A stretch of DNA of 64,000 nucleotides from Ignavibacteria bacterium (GCA_016720145.1 JADJXV010000007.1:103426-167425); one strand, 5' to 3'. Positions 1,840-58,807 are shown, counted from the stretch's first letter. Notes: generated by a model not told the origin, from the sequence alone. Numbers and translations: made by a program.

Positions 1840-4800
1840 TTACTTCACAAGTATCATTTGCTTTGCTGTCACAAGTGTACCTACTTCTAATCGATACATA
1901 TACATTTCACTTCCGAGGTTGGATGCATCATCTCTTGTGAATGTTGCAGTATGATTACCGGCGTCCTGCATTTCACTCACGAGTGTTGCCACTTCTCTAC
2001 CGAGCATTGTAAATACTTTGAGGGTAACGACATCCGGCTTATCAATAGAATACTGAATCGTCGTCGAAGTGCTGAATGGATTCGGATAATTATCCGAAAG
2101 AGAGGATTGATTGCCGGCAATCGGACTCATCACCCCAAGCGGACTAAATCGTAAATCAGTCGAAAGTACAGGAGTCAGCTGATATCCACACACCAAATTA
2201 GCAGTTGCCTGACCGAGAACTCCTTCGAACGTAGCGAGCTTACTGTAAAACGGCATACCACCCATGCGTGTGTTTGTGTTCTTACCAATACGAATGACAA
2301 CCGTATTTGTCTTGTCTGATATGTCAGTATTTTGATAAATTTTTGGAGTTTGGAATACAACATCGCTATCCGAATCAACGGTTAGATTATTGACTCTGAT
2401 CATGCAGCTTTCGTACTGTTCGCCTGTGAGTGCAACTTGTACTAATGAAAGTACTGCAGATGCAGGCAGAGGATTAGCTCTTGACAATCGGAGAAAACCT
2501 ACTAAGTCAGTTGTATTAATTACTTTAAGGAAGTCGTGTTCAGAAATGCGACCTTCGATTCGTACTTTATCACCCATTGCTATTTCAGCATTTTGGACAT
2601 TCGAGTGGAATTGACCTGACACTTGGAAGAGTGTGAGTCCGCCGGTAGCATCTTGAATTCGCGTATAATCACCCATTGTTCGAGTTACAACTCCTTCGAC
2701 AATAACGAGAGTACCAATTGGCAAATCGCGTGCTGCTCGTATGGTATTGACACCTATCGTATCGATGCCTGTTCCGGTTACGGTGATTATGCTATTGCCT
2801 ACATTATGGTCGAAGTCTATATTAGCACTTACTTTACCTTGGACTTGTGGGGCAAAAGTAATAAAAAACTCTTGTGAAGCATTCGGAACAATCGTTCCGA
2901 TGATTGGTGTAATTGAATAGAACGGAGAACTTGAAGCGATATCTGATATAATCAAATCACTCACACCGGTGTTGGTCACATAGACGCTGAGCTGTTTTGT
3001 AGTTTTTACCCGAACATTTCCGAAATCGAGGTTCGATCTATTCACCGTGAACTTCGGAGAAAGGTCACTTCCTGAACTATTACCCGCTAAATAGAGAGTA
3101 TCTCTTGGGTTAGTTGCATTATGATGAAATGCTATATAGCCATTCTGCACGCTCATTGACAGAGGAGAGAAGTTCACATAAAACTTACGAGATGTGCCTG
3201 CCTCGACCACACCTGTACCAAGATCTATCGTATAAAATTTATTACTTGACTTCGCGCTCAAGATGATAAGATTGGCAGTACCTGAATTAGTGACTACGAT
3301 GCTATCTTTCTTGGTCGTGCCACTGACGACACTACCAAATACGAGGCTGAGAGGGTTAACGGAAAATGATGCAAAGACTGGATTACCAATTCCGGTACCG
3401 GTCACGTGTATTGAGTCTTTGGTAGTAGTAGAATTGACATTAAAACGAATCCAACCGTCTTGAATTCCTGATACTAACGGTGTAAAGGTAACATTGAATA
3501 TCCTCGAAGCACCCGGAGCAATCGTTGCATTGAGTGCTGTAAGTGTAAACGTAGTATTCGTGGATACAAAGCTTGAAATAATCAAATCCGCAGTGCCTGA
3601 ATTAGTCACGGTAACTGTTTCTGTTTTGGTTGTTCCATTGACGACATCTCCAAAGTTTACTTCCATCGGAGTGACGGCAAATTTTGATGAAATGCCCGTT
3701 CCACTCACAGTGATAGTATCTTTCGGATTCGCAGCATTATGCGTAAATACAATACTACCTGTTAGCAAGCCATCGGCTAAAGGTGCATACGTGAAGTAAT
3801 ATTTCAGCGTACCGCCGGGAATAATTGTTGCATTCGTTGGGGTTACGGCAAAGACTACATTACTACTCGTCACACTTGTGATCAGTAAATTTGATGTTCC
3901 GGTATTCGAGATTATGACTGAATCCGTCTTTTGTATTCCTTTACGTACATTTCCGAAATTCACAGAACTTACATTCGCTAAAAACTTTGGTGCGAGTCCA
4001 TTTCCACTGACCGATACAGTATCTTTTGGCTTGATTGCATTATGATTGAATATCAACTTACCCGCTTGAGCGCCGTCGGTTAATGGCGAATAGAGGATGT
4101 AAAATTTCATCGACGCGCCCGGTGCAATTGTTCCCGTAGCAGGAGTTACCGCAAAATATGAATTCGAGCTGGTGATGCTTGTCACGACGAGATTCGCAGA
4201 GCCGGAATTTGAAACAGTCACCGAGTCTTTTTTATTCAATCCGCTCACGACACTTCCGAAATTAATAGTAGAAGGTGTGACTGTTGCAATCGGCGAATTC
4301 CCGTTTCCATTGACTGCAATAGTATCCCTTGGCTTGGCAGCATTATGCGAAAATATAATATTGGAGGTTTGATACCCATTGGACAGAGGCGAATAGGTGA
4401 TCATAAATTGTTTTGTGCCGCCGGGTGTAATTGTACCACTAGTAGTATTGACGGAAAACACTGAGTTTGAACTCGTTACATTCGTGATGACCAAGTCTGC
4501 ACCACCTGTATTAGTCACAATAACCGTATCAATTTTACTTGTAAAGTTCGCTACGTTGCCATAGGTAACTTGATAATGATTTGCAGAAAAAATTGGTGAA
4601 GCGGTAGAAGTTGCCCTGACGGTAGTAACGCCTGATGCCATCGTCACCGCAGCCGAAAAAGCAAGTGCACGCCCGTCCATTGAAGCGCCTGTACCAAATG
4701 ATATAGACTGATCAGCCAAAATTGTTCCCTTGAATACTGAATAAGTACCTAAGGTCGCTGATGTACCTACCTGCCAAAAAATATTGGATGCCTGTGCTCC

Positions 4801-5379
4801 ACCTGCGAGTATAATTTTAATACCGCTGCCGAGGTTGAGCGAACTCCCAATCTGAAATATCCAGACGTCCGTTGCATTGCCGGTGAGCGTCACATCTGCT
4901 CCGGTGATATTTGCTGCGCCGGTGAATTTGTAGAGTCCGGGTGCGAGATTTAAGCCACCAATATTGCTACCGCCGGGATTAAGAAATGCACCTGTTGGTA
5001 CGGGAGTTCTATTGGCTGCTTCGGTGTAAGCTGTTGTCAAATCACTCTTTGCTGTTTGTAATAATGTAGAATTTATCACCGAACCTGACGGACCGGAAGC
5101 ATCGACGACATACAAAGTGCCGACTACATTCGAACCGTCAAAACCTGTAATATAGCTCCCTGCAGCCGGGCTGAGACCCACATTTCCGGTGATTGTTACC
5201 GGTGGTACTCCTGTGACGGTCGAGCCGGCAAGGATCACAAAATTACTGAGAGAAAGTAGATTCAAAGGTGCTATTCCTGCCACCATCGTTGTCGTCATCA
5301 TCGCTGCGAGGAGTATCACTCCAAGCATCCGAGCGAATTTGTCATACATAGTGTTTATGTATTTATTAGAAATTTTCAT
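1840..5379 (-). CDS. Giant T9SS-secreted surface protein: signal peptide, ice-binding-like (DUF3494) beta-helix domain, about 7 choice-of-anchor-D/ASH-like Ig repeats, C-terminal T9SS sorting domain
   Basis: The N-terminal block (...LYVVDASGPSGS...TAYTEAANRTP...DVWIFQIGSSLNLGSGIKIILAGGAQASNIFWQVGTSATLG...MDGRALAFSAAVTM) matches DUF3494 ice-binding-like proteins. About 80-aa repeats with NFGNV..G..K.DSV.V.N.G...L.I..... are choice-of-anchor D-like. The C-terminus (...LKVFTMLGREVATLV...YMYRLEVGTLVTAKQMILVK) is a T9SS C-terminal domain. Confidence 0.85.
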   Translation of the reverse strand: MKISNKYINTMYDKFARMLGVILLAAMMTTTMVAGIAPLNLLSLSNFVILAGSTVTGVPPVTITGNVGLSPAAGSYITGFDGSNVVGTLYVVDASGPSGSVINSTLLQTAKSDLTTAYTEAANRTPVPTGAFLNPGGSNIGGLNLAPGLYKFTGAANITGADVTLTGNATDVWIFQIGSSLNLGSGIKIILAGGAQASNIFWQVGTSATLGTYSVFKGTILADQSISFGTGASMDGRALAFSAAVTMASGVTTVRATSTASPIFSANHYQVTYGNVANFTSKIDTVIVTNTGGADLVITNVTSSNSVFSVNTTSGTITPGGTKQFMITYSPLSNGYQTSNIIFSHNAAKPRDTIAVNGNGNSPIATVTPSTINFGSVVSGLNKKDSVTVSNSGSANLVVTSITSSNSYFAVTPATGTIAPGASMKFYILYSPLTDGAQAGKLIFNHNAIKPKDTVSVSGNGLAPKFLANVSSVNFGNVRKGIQKTDSVIISNTGTSNLLITSVTSSNVVFAVTPTNATIIPGGTLKYYFTYAPLADGLLTGSIVFTHNAANPKDTITVSGTGISSKFAVTPMEVNFGDVVNGTTKTETVTVTNSGTADLIISSFVSTNTTFTLTALNATIAPGASRIFNVTFTPLVSGIQDGWIRFNVNSTTTKDSIHVTGTGIGNPVFASFSVNPLSLVFGSVVSGTTKKDSIVVTNSGTANLIILSAKSSNKFYTIDLGTGVVEAGTSRKFYVNFSPLSMSVQNGYIAFHHNATNPRDTLYLAGNSSGSDLSPKFTVNRSNLDFGNVRVKTTKQLSVYVTNTGVSDLIISDIASSSPFYSITPIIGTIVPNASQEFFITFAPQVQGKVSANIDFDHNVGNSIITVTGTGIDTIGVNTIRAARDLPIGTLVIVEGVVTRTMGDYTRIQDATGGLTLFQVSGQFHSNVQNAEIAMGDKVRIEGRISEHDFLKVINTTDLVGFLRLSRANPLPASAVLSLVQVALTGEQYESCMIRVNNLTVDSDSDVVFQTPKIYQNTDISDKTNTVVIRIGKNTNTRMGGMPFYSKLATFEGVLGQATANLVCGYQLTPVLSTDLRFSPLGVMSPIAGNQSSLSDNYPNPFSTSTTIQYSIDKPDVVTLKVFTMLGREVATLVSEMQDAGNHTATFTRDDASNLGSEMYMYRLEVGTLVTAKQMILVK

Positions 5380-5660: not shown

Positions 5661-8600
5661 TTACTTCACGAGTATCATTTGTTTGGTTGAGGAATAGGAT
5701 CCCACGTCCAAACGGTAGTAATATACTTCGCTGCCGAGGAGAGGAGAGCTGCTGTTGGCTGTGAAAGTCACCGTATGCATTCCTGCATTTTGAAACTCAT
5801 TCACCAAGGTCGCCACTTCTTTGCCGAGCAACGTAAATACTTTGAGATTAACCATATCCGATGTGCCAATGCTATACTGTATCGTCGTCGAAGCATTGAA
5901 TGGATTCGGATAATTGCTAGAGAGCGAATAGTCGTTTCCGGTCTGTTGATTGAATATACCTGTTGGCGCAAAACGTAAGTCGGTCGGAAGGACCGGAGTC
6001 AATTGATAGCCGCATGTAATACAGCTACTTGACTGACTAAGGACACCTTCAAAGGTAACGGGAGTTTCGTATATGTTCATTCCGTCCAAGTACGTATCAG
6101 CAGTCACACCGATTCGAATGACCACAGTATTTGCCTTGTCGGAATTATCAGTCACCTGATATGTCTTTGACTCTTGGAACGTAAGGTCACCATCTGAAGT
6201 CATATTCATATTATCTATTTTGATCAAACAGCTTTCATACTGTTCACCACGGAGGGCGATATCAGCAAGTGTCACTTTGAATGGAGTAGGTAATGGATTC
6301 GTACGTGACAAGATTGAGTGACTTGTTAAATTACTACTCGTTATAATCTTCAGATTATCCATCTCGGTAATTTTACCTGCTACACGTAGTTTATCACCCA
6401 TACTTACTTCAGGAGCAAGAGCTTGCAAACCGAATTCACCTGTTTCATGGAAGAGAGTCAGTCCACCGGTCGCATCTTGAATTCTGGTATAGCTGCCTAA
6501 AGTTCGCGTTACAACTCCTTCTGTTATAAAACTCGTACCGATAGGCAAATCACGTGCTTCTTTAATAGTAATCACACGCATCGAATCGACACCGTTTCCG
6601 GTTACATTGAGGATGCTTGATCCACCGTTATGAACGAAGGTAATCGTTGATGTTACACGACCTACTACTGTCGGCGAGAAGGTCACAAAGTATTCCTGAG
6701 AAGCACCTTGAAGTATTGTTCCTGTAGCAGGAGTCACTGTATAATGACTATCACCCGACACAATACTCGTGATGACCAAGTCACCGGTACCGGTGTTTGA
6801 TATCATCACACTTAATTGCTTTGATGTAGTAATTACCACATTGCCGAAGTCAAGACTTTGTGAGGCAAATGTCAATTTCGGCGACACTCCTACACCTCTA
6901 AGCGATATAATCGCAGGAGAATTAAGTCCATTATGTGTAATGGACATATTACCAGTTTGCAAGCCATCGACTATCGGGGAGAATGTCACATTATACTGTT
7001 GACTCATACCCGATGAGAGGGTTGTTCCTGATGGAGTGAAGGTAAACACACCATTTGAACTCGTTATATTGCTTATAGTTAAATCACCCAAGCCCGTATT
7101 GGTAATAGTCACCGGCAGTACTTTAGTAGTGCCTGTGCGTACATTCCCAAAATCGAGATTTTGTGTACTGATTGAAATCGATGAAAGTACTCCAGTACCT
7201 GTCACTGCAATTACATCCGTTGCATTTGATGCATTGTGATTAAAGGTAATACTGCCGGTATGGAATCCGGTCGAAAGTGGAGCGAATGTGACGGAGAATG
7301 TTTGAGAAGAGCCCGGTGCGATTGTTCCAATTGCAGGGGAAATACTAAACTGTGCATTCGTACTCGACACGCCGTTGATCACGAGGTCTGACGTACCGGC
7401 ATTGGTCACTATGACGGTCATTACTTTGCTCACACCTACGCCAACATTACCAAAATCAAGACGTTGCGTATTAGCTACAAACATTGGCGATACACCTGTG
7501 CCTGTCACAGCAATCATGTCGATTGCGTTCGTTGCGTTATGATTAAAGATAATCATACCCGATTGCGATCCGTTCGCCACGGGAGAGAACGTGACAAAGA
7601 ATTGCTGAGTTGCTCCCGGAGCAATTGTCCCTGAATTCGGTGAAACACTAAATACACCATTATTACTCGACACACCACTGATGATCAGATTATCTGTACC
7701 GGTATTGGTCACTGTAATCGAACGTACACTCGATGTAAAATTTCTCACATTGCCGAAGTCGAGAGATTGTACATTCGAGCTGAACTGAGGGGAAATTCCA
7801 GTACCAATCACTATAATCGTATCTAATGGCTTCGCACCATCGTGCGTAAAGATAATAGTACCTGTTCTCAGGCCATCAGCTTGCGGCGAGAAGGAAAGGT
7901 AGAATTTCTGTGAAGCACCCGGAGCAATGATTCCTAAAGTAGGTGTAGCTGTAAATACTACATTCGAACTCGTTACACCGCTTATAATTAGATTCGTTGT
8001 GCCGGTGTTGGTAATTGTCACAGAGTCCATTTTGCTTGTGCCTGTACGGACATTTCCAAAGTTCACTATAAGAGCGCTTGCAGAGAACATCGGCGATACA
8101 CCAACTCCTGTGAGTGTGACTGTATCTTTTGGCTTCGCTGCGTCATGATTAAACACTAATAAACTATTCTGCATACCATCTGTTAACGGCGAGAAAGTCA
8201 CATAGAATTTCATCGAAGCGCCCGGAGCGATTGTACTTGTAGCAGATGGAGTGACTGTATATCGTGGATTCGTACTCGTGACACTGCTAATAACTAGACT
8301 TGTTGTACCGCTATTGGTCACAGTGACGGAGTCCATTTTGGTTGTGCCATTTCTGACATTTCCAAAATTCAAACTCTGTGGATTCACGGTAAATAATGGA
8401 GATACTCCCGTACCTGACACTGTAATCGTGTCTTTAGTTTTGTCAGCATCTCCTGTAAAGATTATCAATCCTGACTGAGCGCCATCAACCAAAGGCGAGA
8501 ACGAAAGGTAGAATTTCTGTGAGGCACCGGGCGCAAGTGAGCCGGTAGTAGGAGTGACTGCGAAACGACCGTTCGTACTTGTTACATTACTTATAGTTAG

Positions 8601-11300
8601 AGTAGAAGTACCAGTGTTGGTAATTACCACTGAGTCCTGCTTGGTTGTACCATTGCGGACATTTCCGAAGCTCACACTTTGTACACTTTTCGCAAGTACC
8701 GGTGATACACCCGTTCCTGTGACACTAATCGTATCTCGAGGAATAAGCGCGTTGTGATTAAAGATAATTAGTCCTGTTTTCACACCATCGGTAAGTGGAG
8801 CAAATGTCACATAGAATTTTTGTGACATACCTTGGGTAATTGTTCCTGTAGCAGGAGTTACCATAAATAGTCCATTCGTACTTGTGATACTGCTTATTAC
8901 CAGATCCGAGGTTCCGGTATTCGATACCGTGACCGAATCCATTTTCGTCGTTCCATTGCGTACATTCCCGAAATTCAAATTCACGACATTTGCAGTAAAT
9001 TTTGGTGATACACCTGTACCACTGAGAGAAATTGAGTCTTTTGGATTGAGTGCATTATGATTGAAATAGACAAATCCCGACTGCGAGCCATCTGCAATTG
9101 GAGCGAATGTCACATAATACTTCTGTGATCCACCGGGGGTAATTGTTCCCGTAGTCGGTGTCACAGTATAGCGTGCATTCGATGTCGTCACACTGCTGAT
9201 GATGAGGTCAGATGTACCTGTATTGGTAATCGTAACCGAGTCGAGCTTGGTCGTACCATTTCTCACATTGCCGAAATTCAGACCTGCAAGGCCTGCACTG
9301 AAGAGAGGCGACACACCAGAACCTGATACAGAATAGATACTTGAAGGGATTTTTGCATTATGGTTAAATGTAAACGTACCTACTTGAAATCCATCGACCA
9401 ACGGTGCGAACGTGATATAATACTTCTGAGATGATCCCGGAGTAAGTGTTCCCGAAGTCGGTGTAATTGTAAATCGTGTATTCGAACCTGTAACGCTTGT
9501 AATCACCAAATTGGATGTTCCGGTATTGGTCACCGTGATAGAATCCATCTTGGTAGTCAGATTACGAACATTGCCGAAATCAAGTGAGACGGGAGCTGCC
9601 GTGAAGAACGGAGAAACTCCTGAGCCACTTACCATGATTGTATCTTTTGGCTTAGCGGCATTATGATTAAACACCACCGTCGCTGTTTGCGCGCCATCGA
9701 CTAAAGGAGCGAATATAAAGTAATACTTGAGTGTAGCACCCGGAGCAATTGTGCCTGTGGTCGGCGTGACCGTAAAGAGCATATTCGAGCTAACGACACT
9801 TGTAATTCTGAGCGTGTCTGTACCGGTATTCGTCACGGTTACGGAGTCTCTTTTCGTACTATCATTGCGTACATTACCGAAATTCAAAGTAGTTGGCACA
9901 GCAGAGAAGAATGGAGAAACACCTGTTCCCGACACATTAATCGTATCTTTTGGCTTGGCAGCATTGTGACTGAAAATGATTCTTCCTGATTGAGCACCAT
10001 CGGCAAGCGGAGCGTAGGTGATATAAAATTTCCTCGTTCCGTTAGGTGTAAGAGTGTCGGTAGTAGGAGTGACGGTATATCGTGCATTTGTGCTCGTCAC
10101 GCTTGTGATCATAAGATTCGCCGTGCCGGTATTGGTCACGGTAATCGAGTCAAGCTTCGTCTGATTATTCCGTACATTCCCAAAATTGATCGTATAAGTA
10201 TTGGATGAAAATATGGGAGAAACTCCTGTACCGGTAGCAACTACCGTATCCCGAGGTTTGGATGCATTATGGACAAAAATTATATTGGCATTTTGATTGC
10301 CGTTTCCTGTAGGTGTATAAGTAATATAGAATTGTTTAACTGAGTCAGGCATAATAGTCGCCGATGTCGATGACACGGTGAACTGTGTGTTTGAGCTTGT
10401 AACATTGGTAATCACTAGATTAGCACCACCGGTGTTTTTCACACGAATAGTGTCAATTTTGCTCGTAAAGTTAGCGACATTGCCAAAAGTCGCTGTTAAT
10501 GAATCAGCCGAAAACACAGGGAATAGAAATGCACGTGTTGAAACCACAGCAGACCCCATCGTAACAGCTGCTGAAAATGCCAACAATCTACCATCGATTG
10601 CCGCACCGGTACCGAGTGAAATTGACTGGTCTGCAAGGATACTTCCCTTGAAGACAGAATATGTACCAAGTGTAGCAGATGTACCGACTTGCCAGAATAT
10701 ATTTGCTGCCTGAGCGCCACCGGCAAGGATGATTTTGATACCGCTGCCCATGTTGAGCGAACTCCCAATCTGAAATATCCACACATCGGTTGCATTGCCG
10801 GTGAGTGTGAGGTCTGCGCCGGTAATATCTGCCGCGCCGGTGAATTTATAGAGTCCGGCAGCGAGATTCATGCCACCCATGTTGCCTGCGCCCGGATTGA
10901 GAAATGTGCCTGTCGGCACCGGTGTTCGATTCGCTGCATCGTTATAAGCAGTTGTCAAATCACCCTTTGCGGTCGTTAATAGACCCGCGTCAATCGTTGA
11001 GCCGGAAGGTCCTGAAGCATCAACTACATATAAAATTCCATCCACATTTGACCCGTCGAAACCTATCACAAAGCTACCGGCAGCAGGACTGAGTCCGATA
11101 TTACCGGTTATGGATACAGGTGGAATACCTGTAATCGTCGAACCTGCGATGATCATAAAATTGTCAAGAGAAAGGAGATTGAGAGGCGGAATTCCGGCAA
11201 ATGATGGCGTTGCTGCCATCATGATTGCTACAGAAAGCACACTCAATAAGCGAATGTACCGAGAGTACATACTCGCGACGAGTACGTTAAAAATTTTCAT
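5661..11300 (-). CDS. Giant T9SS-secreted surface protein, paralogue of 1840..5379: DUF3494 ice-binding-like domain, about 15 choice-of-anchor-D/ASH-like repeats, T9SS C-terminal domain
   Basis: The N-terminal 250 aa and C-terminal about 330 aa are nearly collinear with the downstream paralogue. The central NFGNVRNGTTK...VT.TNTGTS.L.I repeats are expanded (about 15 versus 7). It ends with the T9SS C-terminal domain (...VYYYRLDVGSYSSTKQMILVK). Confidence 0.85.
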   Translation of the reverse strand: MKIFNVLVASMYSRYIRLLSVLSVAIMMAATPSFAGIPPLNLLSLDNFMIIAGSTITGIPPVSITGNIGLSPAAGSFVIGFDGSNVDGILYVVDASGPSGSTIDAGLLTTAKGDLTTAYNDAANRTPVPTGTFLNPGAGNMGGMNLAAGLYKFTGAADITGADLTLTGNATDVWIFQIGSSLNMGSGIKIILAGGAQAANIFWQVGTSATLGTYSVFKGSILADQSISLGTGAAIDGRLLAFSAAVTMGSAVVSTRAFLFPVFSADSLTATFGNVANFTSKIDTIRVKNTGGANLVITNVTSSNTQFTVSSTSATIMPDSVKQFYITYTPTGNGNQNANIIFVHNASKPRDTVVATGTGVSPIFSSNTYTINFGNVRNNQTKLDSITVTNTGTANLMITSVTSTNARYTVTPTTDTLTPNGTRKFYITYAPLADGAQSGRIIFSHNAAKPKDTINVSGTGVSPFFSAVPTTLNFGNVRNDSTKRDSVTVTNTGTDTLRITSVVSSNMLFTVTPTTGTIAPGATLKYYFIFAPLVDGAQTATVVFNHNAAKPKDTIMVSGSGVSPFFTAAPVSLDFGNVRNLTTKMDSITVTNTGTSNLVITSVTGSNTRFTITPTSGTLTPGSSQKYYITFAPLVDGFQVGTFTFNHNAKIPSSIYSVSGSGVSPLFSAGLAGLNFGNVRNGTTKLDSVTITNTGTSDLIISSVTTSNARYTVTPTTGTITPGGSQKYYVTFAPIADGSQSGFVYFNHNALNPKDSISLSGTGVSPKFTANVVNLNFGNVRNGTTKMDSVTVSNTGTSDLVISSITSTNGLFMVTPATGTITQGMSQKFYVTFAPLTDGVKTGLIIFNHNALIPRDTISVTGTGVSPVLAKSVQSVSFGNVRNGTTKQDSVVITNTGTSTLTISNVTSTNGRFAVTPTTGSLAPGASQKFYLSFSPLVDGAQSGLIIFTGDADKTKDTITVSGTGVSPLFTVNPQSLNFGNVRNGTTKMDSVTVTNSGTTSLVISSVTSTNPRYTVTPSATSTIAPGASMKFYVTFSPLTDGMQNSLLVFNHDAAKPKDTVTLTGVGVSPMFSASALIVNFGNVRTGTSKMDSVTITNTGTTNLIISGVTSSNVVFTATPTLGIIAPGASQKFYLSFSPQADGLRTGTIIFTHDGAKPLDTIIVIGTGISPQFSSNVQSLDFGNVRNFTSSVRSITVTNTGTDNLIISGVSSNNGVFSVSPNSGTIAPGATQQFFVTFSPVANGSQSGMIIFNHNATNAIDMIAVTGTGVSPMFVANTQRLDFGNVGVGVSKVMTVIVTNAGTSDLVINGVSSTNAQFSISPAIGTIAPGSSQTFSVTFAPLSTGFHTGSITFNHNASNATDVIAVTGTGVLSSISISTQNLDFGNVRTGTTKVLPVTITNTGLGDLTISNITSSNGVFTFTPSGTTLSSGMSQQYNVTFSPIVDGLQTGNMSITHNGLNSPAIISLRGVGVSPKLTFASQSLDFGNVVITTSKQLSVMISNTGTGDLVITSIVSGDSHYTVTPATGTILQGASQEYFVTFSPTVVGRVTSTITFVHNGGSSILNVTGNGVDSMRVITIKEARDLPIGTSFITEGVVTRTLGSYTRIQDATGGLTLFHETGEFGLQALAPEVSMGDKLRVAGKITEMDNLKIITSSNLTSHSILSRTNPLPTPFKVTLADIALRGEQYESCLIKIDNMNMTSDGDLTFQESKTYQVTDNSDKANTVVIRIGVTADTYLDGMNIYETPVTFEGVLSQSSSCITCGYQLTPVLPTDLRFAPTGIFNQQTGNDYSLSSNYPNPFNASTTIQYSIGTSDMVNLKVFTLLGKEVATLVNEFQNAGMHTVTFTANSSSPLLGSEVYYYRLDVGSYSSTKQMILVK

Positions 11301-12125: not shown

Positions 12126-12557
12126 TTACATCCGTTCCATATACCAATTTAGTTCCTTTTCCATTTTCTTGTAGCGGAAGATGCTGGTAATGATTTTTTG
12201 CAAGCGAACGAATGCTGTCTCACTTTTGACTACATAGTCAAATGCTCGATGATGCATGCAATTTATTGCTACGTCAATTTTATCTTGAGATGACAGCATA
12301 ATCACCGGAATATCAGGATTATATGCTTTAATCTTGTCTAAGGTTTCTATACCGTTCATAGCGAATTTGTCTATACCATCGAGATGGTAATCGAGGATAA
12401 TCACATCCGGAGATCGTGACAAATTCTCCATGCACTTCTCACCGGTCGGATAGGTCTCAATGACAAAATCAGCATGCTCAAGAAATTCGATTTCTAGTAA
12501 TTTTAAGAATACTGCATCATCATCGACAAGGAATATTTTAATCTTTTCTGTGTTCAT
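12126..12557 (-). CDS. Single-domain response regulator (CheY-like receiver)
   Basis: IKIFLVDDDAVFLKLLEIEF...DVIILDYHLDG...IPVIMLSSQDKIDVAINCMHHRAFDYVVK. It overlaps the upstream kinase gene by 4 nt (ATGA). Confidence 0.85.
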   Translation of the reverse strand: MNTEKIKIFLVDDDAVFLKLLEIEFLEHADFVIETYPTGEKCMENLSRSPDVIILDYHLDGIDKFAMNGIETLDKIKAYNPDIPVIMLSSQDKIDVAINCMHHRAFDYVVKSETAFVRLQKIITSIFRYKKMEKELNWYMERM

Positions 12558-15256
12558 CGTTTCGTGTTTTTTATAGTGTTAAATTCCTCTTCCAATTCTC
12601 TACATGCTTGATCGCAAATGAGTTCTAGCTGTAGAACCAATTCATGAATCCCTTCTGTTTGCCGTTGAGTGCTGGCATATTCTTGTATTTTCTTTGCCAT
12701 ATTTTCGAAGTCCTCACTAATCCCCATAATCGCAAAAGACGGTATCATTTTGTGTACAGCCGAGTAAAGTGTATTCCAGTCTTTATCCTGAAAGCTCTGC
12801 TTCATCGAGATAATCAGCGTTGGCGTCTGCTCTAAATACAGCGAAATCATTTCCATCATGAGTGTTGGATTGGACTTGGTACGATTGAGGAGATACGCTA
12901 GGTCAATACACCGCTGTTTTTTCGTTTCGACAAACAACTTTTCTTTTACTTCAATGAGCGACATTGGTTTTTTGACTAACCCAATGATTTTACTATATAA
13001 TATTCGTTCATCGACCGGCTTTGCTATATAATCGTTCATCCCGACTGCCTTACATTTTGCCAGATCGACCGTTGTCACATCTGCAGTGAGTGCAATAATC
13101 GGGATCTTGGAATTCATCGTGTTGCGAATATACTGCGTCGCTTCAAAACCATTCATTTCAGGCATTTGCAAGTCCATGAGAATAATGTCGTAGGTTTTGG
13201 AATGGAGCTTTTCAATCGCAATTTTCCCGTTGGCTGCTATGTCTCGTTCAAATCCAAAATCGTCTAGCAATGTCTTCATCAGTAATTGATTGAGAGCGAT
13301 ATCTTCTACCACAAGTACCTTTATATTCTTGATATCGTCATCAAGACTGAGTACTATTTCTTCAAGCTCTGCCTGCTCTATTGTCTTTTGAAAGGTGAGA
13401 GTAAAGCTAAAAGTAGAACCCTCTCCGAGCTTGCTTTTGACCCGGATACTGCCGCCCTGCGACTCGACTAATTGCTTGACAATTGCGAGTCCGAGACCGG
13501 TTCCGCCATACAACCGAGAAGTGCCGCTCGATGCCTGCTGAAAATTCTCAAAAATCTTGGTAATCTTGTCCTTCGGAATACCGATGCCGGTATCTTTGAC
13601 CGCAAATTCTACGGTGACATTTTCATCAGTTTCACTTATTAATTTAACACTTATGGTGATTTTACCGGTGTTGGAAAATTTCACAGCATTGCTCACAAGG
13701 TTCAGGATAATCTGATGTAATCGCACCGGATCACCTAAAAGGAATTCCGGAATAGTATTGTCGTAAACAATTTCCTGATCTAAGTTTTTTTCCTGAATTT
13801 TTGTTTCGAAAAGATGTACCATCGCCGAAAGCGACGCTTCCATTTTAAAAGGAATTTTCTCAAATGTCATCTTGCCGGCATCTACTTTCGCTAGATCGAG
13901 AATATCATTAATAAGCACTATTAGCGAGTCACCACTCATTTTAATAGCAGTCAAGTATTCTTTTTGTTTGGCACTGAGGTCGGTCTTGAGCAACACCTTG
14001 GTAAATCCTATAATTGCATTCATTGGTGTACGAATTTCGTGGCTCATATTCGAGAGGAATTGCTGCTTTGCTTTTACTGCTTCCTCGGCTTTGATCTTGG
14101 CTTCCTCGGCGAGCATCGTCGCAAGCTCAGCAAATACTTTTGCTTCAATGAGTTCCTTCTCGTTCCTTTTCTGGTCGGTAATATCACGAGCGACAATCAC
14201 CGCACCAAGCACATTCCCGCGGTCATCTTTATAGACCGAACCGTTAAAGAGTACATCGGTGAGCTCTCCATCGATAATCGTAAGAGGGTAATCAGCGACA
14301 AATCCCTTAGCAAAGACTTCTTTATATACTTCTGATGCTCTGTCTGAATCCGTAAAATAATCCTTAAAATCACTATTGCGCAGCTTTTCCCGCGATACAC
14401 CGGTTACTTTGACCATTGCCTCATTCATATCGGTGATTTTCCCATCGGTGCTGATAGTGACAAGAGGATCGCGACTTGCTTCTATCAAGCTTAGAGAGTA
14501 TTGTGAAAGAAGTTTTTTGGCAGTAATGTCCGAACGGATCGACACAAATTGATAGACTTCACCTTGTTCATTCTTGAATGGTACAATCGTAGAGTCCACC
14601 CAATAGTTGGTACCATCTTTTGCTTTGTTTTTAATTTCACCTCGCCAAATTTTTCCGGTGCAAATAGTATCCCATAATTCCCGCATAAACTCTTTAGGAT
14701 GAAATCCAGAATTGACTAACCTATGATCTTGCCCTATTAACTCTTCCCTTTTGTACTTTGAAATTTTACAAAAATTGTCATTTGCGTAGTTAATAATTCC
14801 ATTTTTATCAGTGATAGCTACTATCGACGACTCCTCAAGTGCTAGTTTATACCCGGAAATTTCATTCAAACTCTTCTCGAGATTCGCTTCTACCTTTTTT
14901 TGTTTTGTCACGTCTCGCGCTGCTGCAAATACACCGAGAACTTTGCCGTTGTCATCTTTATAAACTGATGCATTATAAAGCACATCCGTTAATTGACCGT
15001 TGACATGCCTCACCGTCAGCGGATAGTCGGCCACGAAGCCCTTCTCAAATACTTGTCGATATCCTATCTCCGCTTTCTCGGGTTCGGTAAAATACATGCT
15101 GAAGTTCGTCCCGATAAGCTTATCCCGACGAATACCGGTAACTTTAATCGACGCCTCATTGACGTCGGTGATTTTCCCTTCGGCACTGATCGTCACGAGT
15201 GGGTCCAAGCTCGCCTCTATCAGACTACGAGAATATTGTGAAGCTAATTGAACCAA
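12554..15256 (-). CDS. Hybrid sensor histidine kinase: 3 PAS/PAC, HisKA, HATPase_c, receiver and HPt domains
   Basis: Three PAS/PAC units (e.g. ...FVADYPLTVRHVNGQLTDVLYNASVYKDDNGKVLGVFAAARDVT) are followed by SNMSHEIRTPMNAIIGF (H-box). The ATPase region carries DTGIGIP...GGTGLGLAIVKQLV (G-boxes), then a REC domain (VLVVEDIALNQLL...ILMDLQMPEMNGFE) and a C-terminal HPt-like segment. The ORF-track start (TTG at 15256) is probably not the true start. See the next feature. Confidence 0.9.
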   Translation of the reverse strand: MVQLASQYSRSLIEASLDPLVTISAEGKITDVNEASIKVTGIRRDKLIGTNFSMYFTEPEKAEIGYRQVFEKGFVADYPLTVRHVNGQLTDVLYNASVYKDDNGKVLGVFAAARDVTKQKKVEANLEKSLNEISGYKLALEESSIVAITDKNGIINYANDNFCKISKYKREELIGQDHRLVNSGFHPKEFMRELWDTICTGKIWRGEIKNKAKDGTNYWVDSTIVPFKNEQGEVYQFVSIRSDITAKKLLSQYSLSLIEASRDPLVTISTDGKITDMNEAMVKVTGVSREKLRNSDFKDYFTDSDRASEVYKEVFAKGFVADYPLTIIDGELTDVLFNGSVYKDDRGNVLGAVIVARDITDQKRNEKELIEAKVFAELATMLAEEAKIKAEEAVKAKQQFLSNMSHEIRTPMNAIIGFTKVLLKTDLSAKQKEYLTAIKMSGDSLIVLINDILDLAKVDAGKMTFEKIPFKMEASLSAMVHLFETKIQEKNLDQEIVYDNTIPEFLLGDPVRLHQIILNLVSNAVKFSNTGKITISVKLISETDENVTVEFAVKDTGIGIPKDKITKIFENFQQASSGTSRLYGGTGLGLAIVKQLVESQGGSIRVKSKLGEGSTFSFTLTFQKTIEQAELEEIVLSLDDDIKNIKVLVVEDIALNQLLMKTLLDDFGFERDIAANGKIAIEKLHSKTYDIILMDLQMPEMNGFEATQYIRNTMNSKIPIIALTADVTTVDLAKCKAVGMNDYIAKPVDERILYSKIIGLVKKPMSLIEVKEKLFVETKKQRCIDLAYLLNRTKSNPTLMMEMISLYLEQTPTLIISMKQSFQDKDWNTLYSAVHKMIPSFAIMGISEDFENMAKKIQEYASTQRQTEGIHELVLQLELICDQACRELEEEFNTIKNTKR

Positions 15257-16008
15257 ATTATTAGACGCTTCTAATTCCTGCCGGACAGATTCGCGGATCT
15301 CGGTTTGTTTGTTTTGATAGTCAAGTTCGCGGTCGGCGATGACAAGCTCTGCGGCGCGCTTGTCTTTCTCTTCATTTTGGAAGGCAAGTTCTTTATTTGC
15401 AACGAGTAATTTAGCTGTGAGCTTCCCTTTTTCTTCATCCTGATACGCGAGCTCGATATTAGCAAGACCCAGCTCAGCGGCGCGCTTGCCTTTCTCTTCA
15501 TTTTGGAAGGCAAGTTCTTTATTAGCTACGACTAACTCAGCAGCACGCTTGCTTTTTTCTTCGTCTTGATACGCAAGCTCAATATTAGCAAGTCCCAGCT
15601 CAGCAGCGCGTTTGCCTTTTTCCTCGTCTTGATAGGCGAGTTCGATATTCGCAAGACCAAGCTCGGCGGCGCGCTTGCCTTTTTCCTCGTCCTGAAAAGC
15701 CAGCTCAATATTTGCGAGCCCAAGTTCAGCAGCTCGTTTGCCTTTTCCTCATCCTGAAACGCGAGTTCGATATTGGCTATACCAAGCTCCGTGGCTCTTT
15801 TTTCTTTTTCTCCATCCTGAAACTCAAGCTCTTTGTTGGCTATTCCGAGTTCGGCAGCACGCTTCCGCCGCTCAATGTTTTGAGTGTCAATTTCCTTGCG
15901 AACGCTAGCCAATTCTGCAATCAGTGTTTGATTTTCAGCTATTTGAATATCAAGTTCACTTTGAAGGCGGACTATATCATCGACAGATGGGTTAGTTTGG
16001 TATGCCAT
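15257..16008 (-). CDS. N-terminal extension of the hybrid kinase: coiled-coil plus about 10 tandem 21-aa repeats (ELGIANIELAYQDEEKGKRAA), separated from the kinase frame by a 1-nt homopolymer indel near 15745
   Basis: The ATG at 16008 opens MAYQTNPSVDDIVRLQSELDIQIAENQTLIAELASVRKEIDTQNIERRKRAAELGIANKELEFQ... Restoring one base in the T4 run at 15744-15747 (T5 in the other repeat copies) puts the reading in the kinase frame. That frame has no stop from about 15745 to 15256 and reads ...EEKGKRAAELGLANIELAYQDEEK...LVANKELAFQNEEKDKRAAELVIADRELDYQNKQTEIRESVRQELEASNNLVQLASQYS..., which continues into the kinase. It also contains no ATG, GTG or TTG before 15256. The DNA has a 63-bp tandem periodicity. 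Confidence 0.6.
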
Positions 16009-34912: not shown

Positions 34913-37900
34913 TTATTTTTCAATAATCACCGGCAGCACACTCACGCTTGTACCAGTACGCATCACCACATAATACGCGCCTCCGGAAATACCGTTAAGT
35001 TCTAATTGTACTGAATGGTTACCGGAGAGTAGTGGTCCGTTGTAGATTTCCCGAGTCAGCATCCCGAGCGAGGAATACACAGCGAGCGAAGTATGGTCTT
35101 CGCTGACCGTTTCGAATTCTAATTCTAAAACTTCACTTGTCGAGGCACGTTGCAAAAGAGTCACATTCCCGCCAATACGGACGCGGCGGCTGTCTAAAGC
35201 GCAATCACCTGAGAGGGTAAACGTGCCGGCTGCGCCAAGAATAATGGTAGGTTTTTTATTCGCTGTCGGCAGCACAGAACGTGAAATATTTGGATTGCTG
35301 ACGGTGAGCGGTGTCGTGAGTTCGTCACCAAGAAGAGCTTCACATTCGAGCTCGGCGAATGCTCCTGGCTGAATAAATTGGGTCGCAGCCACACCATCAG
35401 GATGAGAGACGGTAATCGTTGTTTGTCCGGGAGTTACGTCGGCATAGCTTGCCGTAAAACCTGTCTGCGCTGCGCCTACACGTACTGCGCGAGGCATTAA
35501 AAGTCGTGGATTGTAGGTCACGTCAATTGCAAAACGGAAGATTCTCGAAAGCTGTATATCGGTTGAAGATATCGTGAGCGGTAATGTCACTCGTTCACCC
35601 ACATTCGCAGTACCACTGCCGATTTGGATAGTCGCTGTGGTGGGAATGGTATCAGCCGGAGGTGGAGGAGCATTCACCTTGCCAAGTCCAAGTAGTGTAA
35701 TCACAGAATTTGTATCGCACGGTCGGTCTATGATAAATTTCATGAGTACGGAGTCTCGCGAGGCAGTTAGAGGAGCATACCGAATCGTCACATCCATTGT
35801 TTCATTGGTCTTGAGAATTGCTGGCAAAGTCGCCGTCATCGACACAACAGAGAATGGTGGCGTCACTCCATCTATACGTTTGATTTGCAAATCAGAAGTA
35901 CCCGTATTTCGTATCGTCACGACTTTGTCTGATGTCAAGCCGGAATCAATCGTTGCGAAGTCGGTCGGATTGGTATTTGCCGTAAATAATGTTGAAAGTC
36001 GGCGTCCGCGAACAGGAATTGCACGCTGTTCTCCGCATGGCTCAAATACCACAAAGACGGTATCTCGGAAGTCACCAATGGCAGACGGAGCGAACTGAAG
36101 TTCAATAATATCACCGTCTTTCACCGCATCGCCTTCTTTTAGCGAAGTAAAGGAAAACGGAGGATTTGCAATTATTTTAGATACTTTTTCCGCGCCTGTG
36201 GCACCTGTGATAGTGAGCCGCACCGTTTGCTTGAATTGAATTGCACTACAGTAGCTCATATCGCCAAAGTTCAGATTGCGTTCTTCACTGAATTTGAATG
36301 TCGTACCTTGTTTCGAACCCGATATTTTGAGTATCACCGTTGCGTTACATTTATCGGCAATTATCGGGATCGACAAAGCGGTAACTGCACCAAATGACTG
36401 GGGTTGGAAACGTACACGGAGTTGTGCTGTTTGCTTAGGCGGGATCGTCACAGGCAGTCCGATAAACACAACATTCGGGTCGGTGGGTTGGGTGGTAATC
36501 TTCAGAGTATCCGAACCAGGATTCGTGAGGGTAATCACCGTATCTCGTGGCGGGTCACATGCTTGTATGAGCGGGAAGGTAATATCGGTAATATCGGCGC
36601 TGAAGCTTGGTGTGACGACAATTCCCTGAAGGTTGGCAATTAATGAATCGGTGCAAACTCCGAATTTGTAATCAACAATTAGAATTGAAAAATACGAACC
36701 TGCACTAGGAGGATTGAACGTAATACCAATCATAGCAGAGTCACCCGGCTTGACAATCTTCGGCAAATTAATATTATTGAGTAGATTATATCCCGTTGAA
36801 TTACCGAGTCGTCTTCCCGTAATTTCAAGATCACTATTTCCTCTATTATATACCCAGATATTTGTATCACGACCGGTATTTTCACAAGAGAGTATTCTGC
36901 CAAAGTCAAATGATGTGACTCCAAGAACTACTTTCGTAACATCTTTCGATCCCTTGAGTTGAATTGTTTGTTTTACTCCGCAGGGCGAGGCGACAAACGT
37001 AGCTGTTCCTGAAGATGTACCGGATATTTGTGGCGTGAATTGAAAAGTTAAGGTCTGAGATTGACCCTTTTGGAGTGTAATTGGCAAGCTTGGCGAAACA
37101 TATCCAAATCCGGGAGTAGCTGATATATTATCAATGGTAATTGATTCATTGCTAGTATTGGTGAGGATAATCGGTTGTGTTGCACTTGACTGACAGTCAT
37201 TGAGCTTACCGAAGTCGATGTCAGGTTTATTGAATGAATACGTAACTACTCGTTGTGTAAGTGTGGTAATTTGAGAAGTATCAGCGCATCCGTCAGCATT
37301 TTTAACAATCACGCGATACGCGCCTGCCGATGATGCGCGGTGGATTTGCCCCGTTTGCGCGGTGATTGTCACACCGTCTTTGATCCATTCATAGCTTGTG
37401 GCAGGGTCTGAGGTGAGACTCACCGTGTCGCCTGAGCAGAGAAAGAGCGAACCTGCTGTAATCACAGCAGTTGGCTTAGCGAGAATAATTACTTCTTTTG
37501 GGTCAGACTCGGTCGTGCAATTGACAGCATTGGTGGCGCGGACACGGTATTGTCCTGCCGTGGAAGCGATGATAGAATTCGTTGTAGCACCGGGAATATC
37601 GGCACCATTTCGTGACCATTGGAAAGTAAGTCCGGCAGTTGTGGCCGTTGAGAGTGTCACATTTTTGCCGATGCAGAAGGATAAGGGTCCGGAGGCGGTA
37701 ATGTCGGGCTTGACAGGGGCAATTTTTACTGCAATTGCCGAGGCGTAGTTGGTTTCGTTGTAGGCGCGGCCACGACCATATTTCGTGTCTGTAGAAATCA
37801 CAGCATCTTCGAGATCATCTTTGGTATAACGGAATGCAAATACTCGATATTTATAATTCAGCCCACAAGTCATGGTAGGTATTGCATCATCGTACGTTGT

Positions 37901-38878
37901 AACTGTGGATGATAGATTAGCCAATACTCGCCAGTCGCCGATAGTTTCGCCTGGTGCATAGTTTTTGCCGTCTTGGGGTACTTTATTCGTATCTGATTGT
38001 GTTTCAAGGGCAAAGAGTACTAAATATCCTTGTATATTATCAGATTGGTTGGGGTCGGTCATGGCATTCCATGAGAGCTTTACGGTGTTCCCGCCTACGA
38101 CGGTCGTCGTAAGAGTAGGTGATGTCCATAGTGGCTGCCGAGTAGTACGCCAGAATTGACTGTTGAGAATATCATTGGCGGTAGCACCGAAGTTCGGAAA
38201 ACCTTTAGAAGCATTACTTGGAATCGGTGCACTTGCCAGTGTTTTTGTACCTGATCCCGAATAATCTGCAATTGTAGCACCGGGATAAACCCTGACTAAA
38301 TTTCCCGCTGAGATTGACGAAGGATGCTGGAGCTTGGGCTGCGGTAAATTATTATAATCATTACCGGTGTTTGACCCATGTGAGAGTGCATGAACATGTG
38401 TTCCTGCTTCATTGGTGATTTGAATAATATCTCTCGCTTGAGAAATACTCAACACACCTAATAATTTCCATTCTTGACCAATAATACCTAGAGAATCAAA
38501 CACGGACCAATCATTCGCTTCGACTTCTATATGTCCGTCTACATAAGATTTATTAACTATGTAGAGTGGGTTTTGCTGTAAACGGTGTTGAATGACTATC
38601 ACGGTACCAGCTCGTAAATTTCTCCACATAGGAACATCTTTGAAGCGAACACATCCATTCCAAGTATCAAAATTTGTTACATTATCCCTAAATGTATATC
38701 CAACAATTGTCAAATTATCCTTTACGACTAATATCTCTGTCCATTCACCATCGGGCACTCCGTTGAAATCGGAATATTCACTCACGACAATATCCTGCGC
38801 ACGCACCGAACTCGGCGCTACCATCACAGCCACACACAGACACATTAAAAACGTACAGAATTGTTTCATGGGGATCAC
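34913..38878 (-). CDS. Giant T9SS-secreted multidomain surface protein (N-terminal lamin-tail-like domain, FN3/Ig-like/PKD-like and choice-of-anchor-D-like repeats, C-terminal T9SS sorting domain)
   Basis: Signal peptide. The segment VVSEYSDFNGVPDGEWTEILVVKDNLTIVGYTFRDN is lamin-tail-domain-like. Ig-like repeats carry conserved Cys/Trp (SFCIGKNVTLS...FQWSRNGADIPGATTNS...YRVRATNAVNC). The C-terminus (...AYYVVMRTGTSVSVLPVIIEK) is a T9SS C-terminal domain. Confidence 0.8.
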   Translation of the reverse strand: MIPMKQFCTFLMCLCVAVMVAPSSVRAQDIVVSEYSDFNGVPDGEWTEILVVKDNLTIVGYTFRDNVTNFDTWNGCVRFKDVPMWRNLRAGTVIVIQHRLQQNPLYIVNKSYVDGHIEVEANDWSVFDSLGIIGQEWKLLGVLSISQARDIIQITNEAGTHVHALSHGSNTGNDYNNLPQPKLQHPSSISAGNLVRVYPGATIADYSGSGTKTLASAPIPSNASKGFPNFGATANDILNSQFWRTTRQPLWTSPTLTTTVVGGNTVKLSWNAMTDPNQSDNIQGYLVLFALETQSDTNKVPQDGKNYAPGETIGDWRVLANLSSTVTTYDDAIPTMTCGLNYKYRVFAFRYTKDDLEDAVISTDTKYGRGRAYNETNYASAIAVKIAPVKPDITASGPLSFCIGKNVTLSTATTAGLTFQWSRNGADIPGATTNSIIASTAGQYRVRATNAVNCTTESDPKEVIILAKPTAVITAGSLFLCSGDTVSLTSDPATSYEWIKDGVTITAQTGQIHRASSAGAYRVIVKNADGCADTSQITTLTQRVVTYSFNKPDIDFGKLNDCQSSATQPIILTNTSNESITIDNISATPGFGYVSPSLPITLQKGQSQTLTFQFTPQISGTSSGTATFVASPCGVKQTIQLKGSKDVTKVVLGVTSFDFGRILSCENTGRDTNIWVYNRGNSDLEITGRRLGNSTGYNLLNNINLPKIVKPGDSAMIGITFNPPSAGSYFSILIVDYKFGVCTDSLIANLQGIVVTPSFSADITDITFPLIQACDPPRDTVITLTNPGSDTLKITTQPTDPNVVFIGLPVTIPPKQTAQLRVRFQPQSFGAVTALSIPIIADKCNATVILKISGSKQGTTFKFSEERNLNFGDMSYCSAIQFKQTVRLTITGATGAEKVSKIIANPPFSFTSLKEGDAVKDGDIIELQFAPSAIGDFRDTVFVVFEPCGEQRAIPVRGRRLSTLFTANTNPTDFATIDSGLTSDKVVTIRNTGTSDLQIKRIDGVTPPFSVVSMTATLPAILKTNETMDVTIRYAPLTASRDSVLMKFIIDRPCDTNSVITLLGLGKVNAPPPPADTIPTTATIQIGSGTANVGERVTLPLTISSTDIQLSRIFRFAIDVTYNPRLLMPRAVRVGAAQTGFTASYADVTPGQTTITVSHPDGVAATQFIQPGAFAELECEALLGDELTTPLTVSNPNISRSVLPTANKKPTIILGAAGTFTLSGDCALDSRRVRIGGNVTLLQRASTSEVLELEFETVSEDHTSLAVYSSLGMLTREIYNGPLLSGNHSVQLELNGISGGAYYVVMRTGTSVSVLPVIIEK

Positions 38879-46332: not shown

Positions 46333-46399
46333 TTCTTGTGGGTATATTTGGTCGAGTAGAGAGCTAACCCACAGTCTTTAGATTCCACCGTAGTTCCGT

Positions 46400-51871: not shown

Positions 51872-51960
51872 CAAAAACTGAAATTACCGTAAGTTATCAT
51901 TGCAAGATATCATTGTAAGTTATCATTGCAAGTTAGCGTTGTAAGTTATCATTGGATAAA
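51872..51960 (+). promoter_or_regulatory. Conserved upstream element AAACTGAAATTACCGTAAGTTATCATTG followed by five tandem 13-14-bp repeats (GTTATCATTG[CT]AA)
   Basis: ggcaaaaactgaaattaccgtaagttatcattgcaa-gatatcattgtaa-gttatcattgcaa-gttagcgttgtaa-gttatcattgg. A single-copy homologue (gggcagaaactgaaattactgtaagttaccattg) lies at 63775-63808, upstream of the next paralogue. Confidence 0.4.
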
Positions 51961-58775: not shown

Positions 58776-58807
58776 TCTATCTTTTTTACTATTACAGAGT
58801 GTGTGCT

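Follow-up and report, generated by a model that had tools for sequence, protein, structure and literature searches.

A hybrid histidine kinase with an N-terminal array of 21-residue repeats, split by a one-base deletion in an Ignavibacteria genome assembly

One kinase gene read as two open reading frames

In a 64,000-nucleotide (nt) stretch of DNA from an Ignavibacteria bacterium (GCA_016720145.1, JADJXV010000007.1:103426-167425; hereafter the window, with positions counted from its first letter), two open reading frames (ORFs) lie side by side on the minus strand, one starting with ATG (16008..15532; 158 amino acids, aa) and the other with TTG (15256..12554; 900 aa). We confirmed that the two ORFs constitute one gene broken by a 1-nt deletion at 15741..15746. 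Addition of one base fuses both into a single 1151-aa product, which, judged from its domain matches, is a HisKA-type hybrid histidine kinase with PAS sensors, a receiver (REC) domain and probably an HPt domain (Table 1). The original prediction, made from the DNA alone, had put the corrected protein at 1150 aa, which our repair essentially reproduces.

The kinase frame continues upstream of TTG 15256 for 164 codons (160 had been predicted) free of any stop, ATG, GTG or TTG, back to 15748. No start-less extension of comparable size was found in the other real genes of the window. This start-free part encodes seven perfect repeat units, and TTG 15256, the apparent start of the 900-aa ORF, corresponds to Leu252 of the full protein. 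The 158-aa ORF, on the other hand, is out of the repeat frame after unit 2 and then reads 70 residues from out-of-frame repeat DNA. The last stop of the kinase frame, TGA at 15751..15749, is directly upstream of the indel site, where the coding strand at 15750..15730 reads GAGGAAAAGGCAAACGAGCTG (T4 at 15743..15746 and CC at 15741..15742 on the plus strand). In the NCBI annotation, the interval from the response regulator (MBK9248289) to the AraC gene (MBK9248292) likewise contains two proteins, and neither has the exact sequence that we read for the 900-aa or the 158-aa ORF.

The nine 63-nt units were compared with one another in the repaired frame. The summed mean pairwise differences amounted to 3.8, 3.3 and 12.3 for codon positions 1, 2 and 3, respectively, and the codon differences among units comprised 295 synonymous and 218 non-synonymous ones, as against 25/367 and 33/375 in the two wrong frames. 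As the differences are dominated by position 3 and rich in synonymous ones, the units on either side of the indel evolve under protein-level constraint in one common frame.

Orthologous loci, reached via the AraC-family gene upstream of the kinase ATG, were recovered from two related species in seven independent assemblies. In the first species (L081, L170 and L171), of which the AraC protein is 92-94% identical and the kinase DNA about 80-83% identical to those of the window, the kinase is one uninterrupted ORF with eight units and the start MAHSTTIPAEKIALLQKELDIQ. In the second species (L166, L167, L168 and L169; four independent assemblies), the kinase is uninterrupted where covered, L168 and L169 covering just its first 141 codons. 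In L166 and L167, its called product has 1074 aa and three units, and the next gene is again the 143-aa receiver. The kinase reads in frame at the indel site in all of the seven assemblies, with either A5G2 or A4G3, and the alignment of the window with L170 (2831 nt of the kinase gene, 83.5% identity) contains exactly one gap, which is at the indel. The distance from the AraC stop to the kinase ATG is 37 nt in the window and 38 nt in L170. Thus, these uninterrupted orthologues behind the same AraC gene bear out the prediction that the repeat array belongs to the kinase and is masked by a 1-nt indel. The alignment with related kinases that it had called for gave the same answer, the repeat being contiguous with the same PAS type or with HisKA in more than 100 other proteins.

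The number of units differs among the orthologous kinases, namely three in L166/L167, eight in L081/L170 and nine in the window, albeit with the flanking head and linker conserved. By these counts, the repeat copy number changes quickly among relatives.

The missing base could be either an A or a G. An A5 run, in the context GA(G/A)GAAAAAGG(C/G), is present in four of the eight other units of the array, and the remaining units have A6 or A3, contrary to the prediction that the corresponding T5 run is intact in the other copies. The positional orthologue (L170/L081) reads GATGAGGAAAAGGGCAAG at the site, with the A4G3 form GAGGAAAAGGGC. Since the positional orthologue is A4G3, loss of an A (A5 to A4) and loss of a G (G3 to G2; C3 to C2 on the plus strand) are equally parsimonious. 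The predicted loss of one T from a T5 run is therefore correct as to a 1-nt loss at this site, but the T/A run cannot be singled out as the place of the loss. A search of metagenome contigs for the exact DNA around the indel, with one extra base allowed, had no match, and none was found in the contig index for the exact protein sequences of the 158-aa and 900-aa ORFs and the receiver.

Origin of the missing base

We consider it likely that the missing base reflects a residual homopolymer under-call of a Nanopore R9.4.1 metagenome assembly rather than the organism itself. Proteins of the window, among them AraC, the receiver, DnaG and Mdh, are identical to MBK9248288-MBK9248330 (locus tag IPM69, 'Ignavibacteria bacterium', on a contig of 279,923 bp), and the closest named relatives of the Mdh are Kapabacteria. 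MBK9248288-330 sit between MBK8426796 (JADJSY01, Hade_18-Q3-R52-61_MAXAC.228) and MBK9982683-90 (JADKGY01, Ribe_18-Q3-R11-54_MAXAC.273), and the comparison included a third metagenome-assembled genome (MAG), JADKJX01 (Vibo_18-Q3-R45-57_BATAC.460, MBL0183398). We infer that the MAG of the window comes from the Nanopore R9.4.1 activated-sludge project, in which a CANU assembly was treated with Racon, two rounds of medaka (R9.4.1 model) and one Illumina round of Racon (PMC8012365). If so, the source sample belongs to BioProject PRJNA629478. The MAG table of that study lists many Kapabacteria (PMC8012365). Homopolymer indels that fragment gene calls are a documented residual error in R9.4.1 assemblies (PMC9262707). 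The case described here resembles them in that a conserved gene is split through the loss of 1 nt from a short homopolymer, and differs in that the runs are of 4-5 nt, at the short end of the usual failures.

A second gene of the window is broken in a similar manner. The plus-strand ORFs 51952..56976 (1674 aa) and 56967..57782 (271 aa, with a type IX secretion system [T9SS] sorting domain) share 10 nt at a run of four G residues (G4). Extending the G4 at 56957..56960 to G5 gives a 1943-aa protein, in which a choice-of-anchor-D immunoglobulin (Ig)-like domain spans the junction. The related genome L161 has G5 where the window has G4, and a 1922-aa paralogue in the same MAG shares a 90% cluster with the 271-aa piece. 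Judged from these comparisons, the G4 is probably a second homopolymer consensus error. Altogether, the R9.4.1 accession block and the second gene with the same kind of homopolymer deletion favor an artefact in the kinase gene, and of the two explanations that had been offered for the indel, an assembly error is the better supported one.

Several observations weigh against an artefact. The attribution of the MAG to the activated-sludge project has the accession bracket and the isolate naming as its basis. The single independent contig of the same population, Logan contig L165 (SRR11674015), matches the window at 100% identity yet breaks off at 15799, so that about 50 nt separate its end from the indel. 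The likely source assembly had an Illumina polishing round; as the 63-nt units are 73-82% identical, short reads should map at the site and could have corrected an error. Furthermore, the intact ORFs of 1179-1879 aa in the window imply a low residual error rate.

Some of these observations can be taken in favor of a real 1-nt deletion, namely a mutation that recently inactivated or split the gene in this population. In that case, a 158-aa N-terminal fragment with an out-of-frame tail would be made and, at best, also an N-terminally truncated kinase that begins at an internal codon, for instance TTG 15256, and is uncoupled from the repeat stalk. The deletion is present in the deposited sequence, for which NCBI annotates two proteins between MBK9248289 and MBK9248292, and the Illumina polishing, the mappable units and the intactness of most genes of the window fit a genuine change. 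Cells carry many sensor kinases, each of them dispensable on its own, and tandem repeats mutate readily, which speaks for such a mutation. On the other hand, there is no decay on either side of the site, the synonymous-dominated pattern is continuous across it, the indel is the sole gap in 2.8 kb against the orthologue, and the orthologues are all intact. The second gene with the same kind of homopolymer minus-1 error lies 41 kb away, and every copy of a multicopy intron reverse transcriptase (RT) in the MAG is fragmented (see below), pointing to the assembly over biology. A scan of the minus strand at 15256-15800 found no sigma-70-like promoter from which a separate kinase could be transcribed, although the model used excludes Bacteroidota-type promoters. 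Thus, we regard a real deletion as the weaker of the two explanations, unlikely yet deserving some credence.

A regulated switch at the site is far less probable still. It would take the form of slipped-strand phase variation, in which homopolymer slippage turns the full-length kinase on and off, or of programmed -1 frameshifting at GAA-AAG-G. The indel does lie in a mononucleotide run close to the 5' end of a regulatory gene, and if tRNA-Lys slipped by -1 from AAG to AAA, the consensus protein with its EEKGKR reading would be restored. However, the mononucleotide tracts known for phase variation span about 7 nt or more, while the run here is of 4-5 nt (A4 beside G2; A5 or G3 if intact) and falls below such contingency-locus tracts. 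A similar A-run is found in every unit of the array, so that this run is not special, and with all of the seven orthologous assemblies in frame, neither the frameshift nor a long tract is conserved. As for recoding, G-GAA-AAG is not an X-XXY-YYZ slippery heptamer. The slipped-strand phase-variable switch raised by the original prediction is not supported, given the shortness of the run and the in-frame state of every recovered orthologue; as the indel is most probably a consensus error, the idea of a hidden switch should be dropped. Lastly, the two ORFs might be separate by design, one encoding a small protein of repeats and the other a PAS kinase of its own with its start at TTG 15256. Both have a possible start codon, and split arrangements of signaling domains, which do occur, provide a precedent. 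This reading is effectively refuted by the out-of-frame end of the 158-aa ORF past unit 2, by the start-free kinase frame with its seven perfect units and by the lack of the split form in any of the recovered orthologues.

Preferring a consensus error, we propose that the annotation be revised by merging the two ORFs into one hybrid kinase and treating the frameshift as a probable consensus error, and likewise for the T9SS protein at 56957. Those who mine this set of MAGs for pseudogenes or phase variation should expect such artefacts, in and near repeats too.

The 21-residue repeat and its possible role

The array occupies residues 49-237 and comprises nine units, fewer than the approximately ten copies predicted. 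It opens with KRAAELGIANKELEFQDGEKE and KRATELGIANIELAFQDEEKG, continues with several KRAAELGLANIELAYQDEEKG-type units and closes with the degenerate KRAAELVIADRELDYQNKQTE. Tandem Repeats Finder (TRF) reported a period of 63 nt over about 15343..15830, with units only about 73-82% identical in DNA.

When 150 aa of the array were searched with phmmer in a set of 1.84 billion cluster representatives, 1407 proteins were retrieved at E <= 0.001 (855 at E <= 1e-10 and 313 at E <= 1e-30), the repeat-bearing clusters being counted at 50% identity. The domains found beside the repeat in 70 sampled proteins were HATPase_c (47), HisKA (45), PAS (36) and REC (10), followed by GAF (6), HD-type (5), CHASE3 (5), GGDEF (3) and SpoIIE (1). 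These co-occurring domains mark the array as a module of signaling proteins, sited where helical linkers sit. A search with the repaired N-terminal 395 aa detected many proteins with repeats of this 21-aa unit, their arrays closing with the degenerate unit and linker seen in the window kinase, and the junction in the homologues (..KRAAELVIADIELDFQNKEKEKREIANKELEAF..ASQYS.SLIEAS.DPLVTIS) leads into the same PAS type as in the window kinase. Scans of genome and metagenome contigs identified at least 160 loci with the repeat, and among the matches listed there were 126 distinct ORFs with 2-22 units, which displayed the architectures PAS-array-PAS-kinase, REC-array-kinase and array-kinase. In some arrays, the last unit passes straight into the HisKA H-box helix (..IANKELEAFSYSVSHDLRGPL, ..ANKELLAFTYISSHDLQEPL). 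The best segment identity among the matches listed in the genome-contig scan was 77%. On these matches, the window kinase is an ordinary member of a sizeable, undescribed group of signaling proteins with a 21-aa helical repeat array.

This repeat, spread over about 1400 clusters, has neither a model in Pfam or NCBIfam nor a solved structure nor a literature match for its sequence. No model in the Pfam and NCBIfam scan of the kinase covers the 21-aa repeats, the only PDB sequence match to the array, to a designed TIM barrel at E = 0.28, is due to chance, and full-text literature searches for the repeat strings and for 21-residue repeats in histidine kinases gave nothing relevant. Matches of Pfam PH_SLA1 (PF24081) to the arrays (window residues 150-217; 14 of the 70 sampled proteins; E down to 1e-8) were judged to be compositional false positives. 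Such matches could mislead automatic annotation.

The consensus of 1112 units is KRAAEL[IVG]IANKEL[AV]FQN[ED]EK[EG], and the units of the window follow the pattern KRAAEL-G/I-L/I-AN-I/K-EL-A-Y/F-Q-D/N-EEK-G/E. Polar residues at K1, R2, E5, N10, E12, Q16, E19 and K20 are nearly invariant in the 1112 units, although the pattern by which the units were collected itself restricts several of their conserved positions. Positions 7 and 11, one helical turn apart, co-vary (Ile7 with Lys11 versus Gly7 with Ile11), which fits a helix; positions 7 and 17 also co-vary, Gly7 tending to accompany Asp17. Two subtypes of the unit, ELIIANKELAFQNEEKE and ELGIANIELAFQDEEKG, are interleaved inside single arrays. 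The 21 residues correspond to three heptads, with the invariant Leu6 and Leu13 seven apart and residues 16-23 all charged or polar. With 11 aligned sequences as input, AlphaFold2 (AF2) modeled 395 aa of the kinase frame at a mean predicted local distance difference test (pLDDT) score of 57.8. The better-modeled part is helical throughout and continuous to the PAS core, and PAS 1 was modeled with PAS-like strands and helices at a pLDDT of 80-89.

From these features, the repeat is probably a helical dimerization or spacer stalk. The product would be a cytoplasmic hybrid histidine kinase of about 1151 aa, in which the array may form a long alpha-helical stalk that self-associates, holds or pre-forms the kinase dimer and sets spacing or geometry ahead of the PAS sensors; gain and loss of repeats may thereby retune the kinase. 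Two points count against so simple a stalk. The conserved Ile8 (85%) and Phe15 (90%) are on the opposite side of the helix from Leu6 and Leu13, and two hydrophobic faces combined with the polar residues 16-23 make a pattern unlike that of a plain two-stranded zipper. In addition, the pLDDT is about 30-35 across most of the array in the AF2 model, which is of a monomer. Thus, 'perfect-period amphipathic', the wording of the original prediction, is roughly right for the period and the amphipathic character, but a simple two-stranded coiled coil would show a different pattern of hydrophobic residues. The suggestion that the repeat acts as a sensing module found no support.

It is possible, though we hold it doubtful, that the unit KRAAEL-I-IANKELAFQNEEKE represents a distinct, undescribed signaling module rather than a generic coiled coil, serving as a length-tunable 'ruler' or assembly element or as a docking scaffold. 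This view is suggested by the near-invariant polar residues, the two hydrophobic faces, the occurrence almost solely in signaling proteins and the variable copy number (2-22 overall; 3, 8 and 9 in the orthologues). If so, the array would set the oligomeric state or the output level of the attached kinase, and gain or loss of units would be a fast evolutionary route for retuning a sensor. We regard the repeat family as a modest lead, and describing it would narrow a limited but genuine gap in the understanding of the assembly of cytoplasmic PAS kinases.

Three known systems bear comparison with the array. Poly-HAMP arrays such as that of Aer2 consist of concatenated helical signaling modules; each HAMP has two helices in about 50 aa and is covered by a dedicated Pfam model. 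The 21-aa array is similar in having tandem helical modules, in variable number, in the signal path of bacterial receptors, but HAMP is a larger, two-helix unit and no Pfam match to HAMP was found in the window kinase. As defined by Anantharaman, Balaji and Aravind (2006; PMC1592074), the S-helix is a single segment of about 40 residues (five heptads) that bears an ERT signature in its central heptad. Like the S-helix, the repeat is helical, almost confined to signaling proteins and located between PAS/REC/GAF inputs and HisKA/GGDEF/HD-GYP/PP2C outputs or between two PAS domains, and it can merge with the first DHp helix (PMC1592074). It differs in that a unit of 21 residues lacking the ERT signature is iterated 2-22 times, with nearly invariant polar residues and with large hydrophobics on two faces; moreover, the array of the window kinase is N-terminal, with no input domain upstream. 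Among the dimerizing zippers beside PAS domains in hybrid kinases, the leucine zipper of ArcB (PMC3364231) is likewise a helical self-association element before the PAS of a HisKA-REC-HPt hybrid kinase, and NCBIfam ArcB is among the best full-length matches to the window kinase. ArcB has one short zipper after a membrane anchor, in contrast to the 189 aa in nine units of a soluble protein here.

Domain architecture and neighboring genes

The features of the kinase locus are listed in Table 1. No transmembrane segment or signal peptide is evident in the N-terminal head. TIGR00229 matched three stretches of the kinase (E = 3.5e-45), and PAS_9, PAS and PAS_4 exceeded their cut-offs. The His box of the HisKA phospho-acceptor is conserved (FLSNMSHEIRTPMN). 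The NCBIfam profiles of ArcB and TorS align on the kinase through residues 1137-1142. By standard domain logic, a signal would pass from the PAS domains to autophosphorylation of the His, then to the internal REC, the HPt and finally the downstream receiver protein. The pair of kinase and receiver is kept in the orthologous loci (L166 and L167), and the ATGA overlap of the kinase stop with the start of the 143-aa receiver suggests translational coupling.

Table 1. Features of the kinase locus and the group II intron, with positions in the window.
Feature	Position	Strand	Remarks
Stand-alone receiver protein, 143 aa, MBK9248289.1	12126..12557	-	ATG overlaps kinase stop (ATGA)
Whole hybrid sensor kinase gene, reconstructed	12554..16008	-	ATG 16008..16006, stop 12556..12554; one base restored
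Probable HPt domain, residues 1053-1134	12608..12853	-	PF01627, 17 bits, under the 24.6-bit cut-off
Receiver domain, residues 898-1008	12986..13318	-	PF00072, E = 1e-25; DIILMDLQMPEMNG motif present
HATPase_c catalytic domain, residues 759-873	13391..13735	-	PF02518, E = 1.5e-31
HisKA dimerization/phospho-acceptor domain, residues 647-712	13874..14071	-	PF00512, E = 2e-20; H-box SHEIRTP
PAS 3, residues 507-615	14165..14491	-	PAS_4 and PAS_8 matches
PAS 2, residues 396-497	14519..14824	-	PAS_9, PAS and PAS_3 matches
PAS 1, residues about 261-377, SLIEASLDPLVTIS type	14879..15229	-	TIGR00229, PAS_9 and Diguanyl_cycl_sensor matches
Helical linker IRESVRQELEASNNLVQLASQ into PAS 1	15230..15298	-	Holds TTG 15256; homologues with equivalent KREIANKELEAFSYSVKLASQYS linker
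Nine 63-nt/21-aa units, KRAAELGLANIELAYQDEEKG type, residues 49-237	15299..15864	-	Ninth degenerate (KRAAELVIADRELDYQNKQTE); TRF and codon-position test
Indel site	15741..15746	-	Coding strand GAGGAAAAGGC, AAAAGG (A4G2); A5G2 or A4G3 expected
N-terminal 48-aa head, MAYQTNPSVDDIVRLQSELDIQIAENQTLIAELASVRKEIDTQNIERR	15865..16008	-	Kept in orthologues (MAHSTTIPAEKIALLQKELDIQKGENQTLIEELAIVRREIDAQNIERW)
AraC-family regulator, 195 aa, MBK9248292.1	16046..16633	-	Directly upstream; synteny anchor
Group II intron between mdh and dnaG	46351..48299	-	Rfam D1-D4 and D5-6 matches

The RT/maturase of the group II intron is spread over at least three frames, and two of its frameshifts resemble an extra A in GAACG, one of them within the YADD motif. 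The intron is absent at the same intergenic spot of the related genome L161, while the MAG of the window holds at least four further copies of the intron RT, all annotated as fragments of 70-219 aa.

In L161 (JGI 3300056850, contig Ga0558718_00140, 1900..8000), the orthologue of the T9SS Ig-repeat gene is itself broken up, as four called genes with three frame changes, at which the window is continuous. Long-read noise was entertained as the cause of these three breaks and dropped, as they are not at homopolymers.

On the minus strand, 1840..5379 and 5661..11300 of the window encode 1179- and 1879-aa proteins with an N-terminal ice-binding-like domain and up to 13 HYDIN/ASH-type Ig domains. 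Further Ig-repeat proteins are located at 34913..38878, 51952..57782 and 58673..63745, making the region rich in giant surface proteins.

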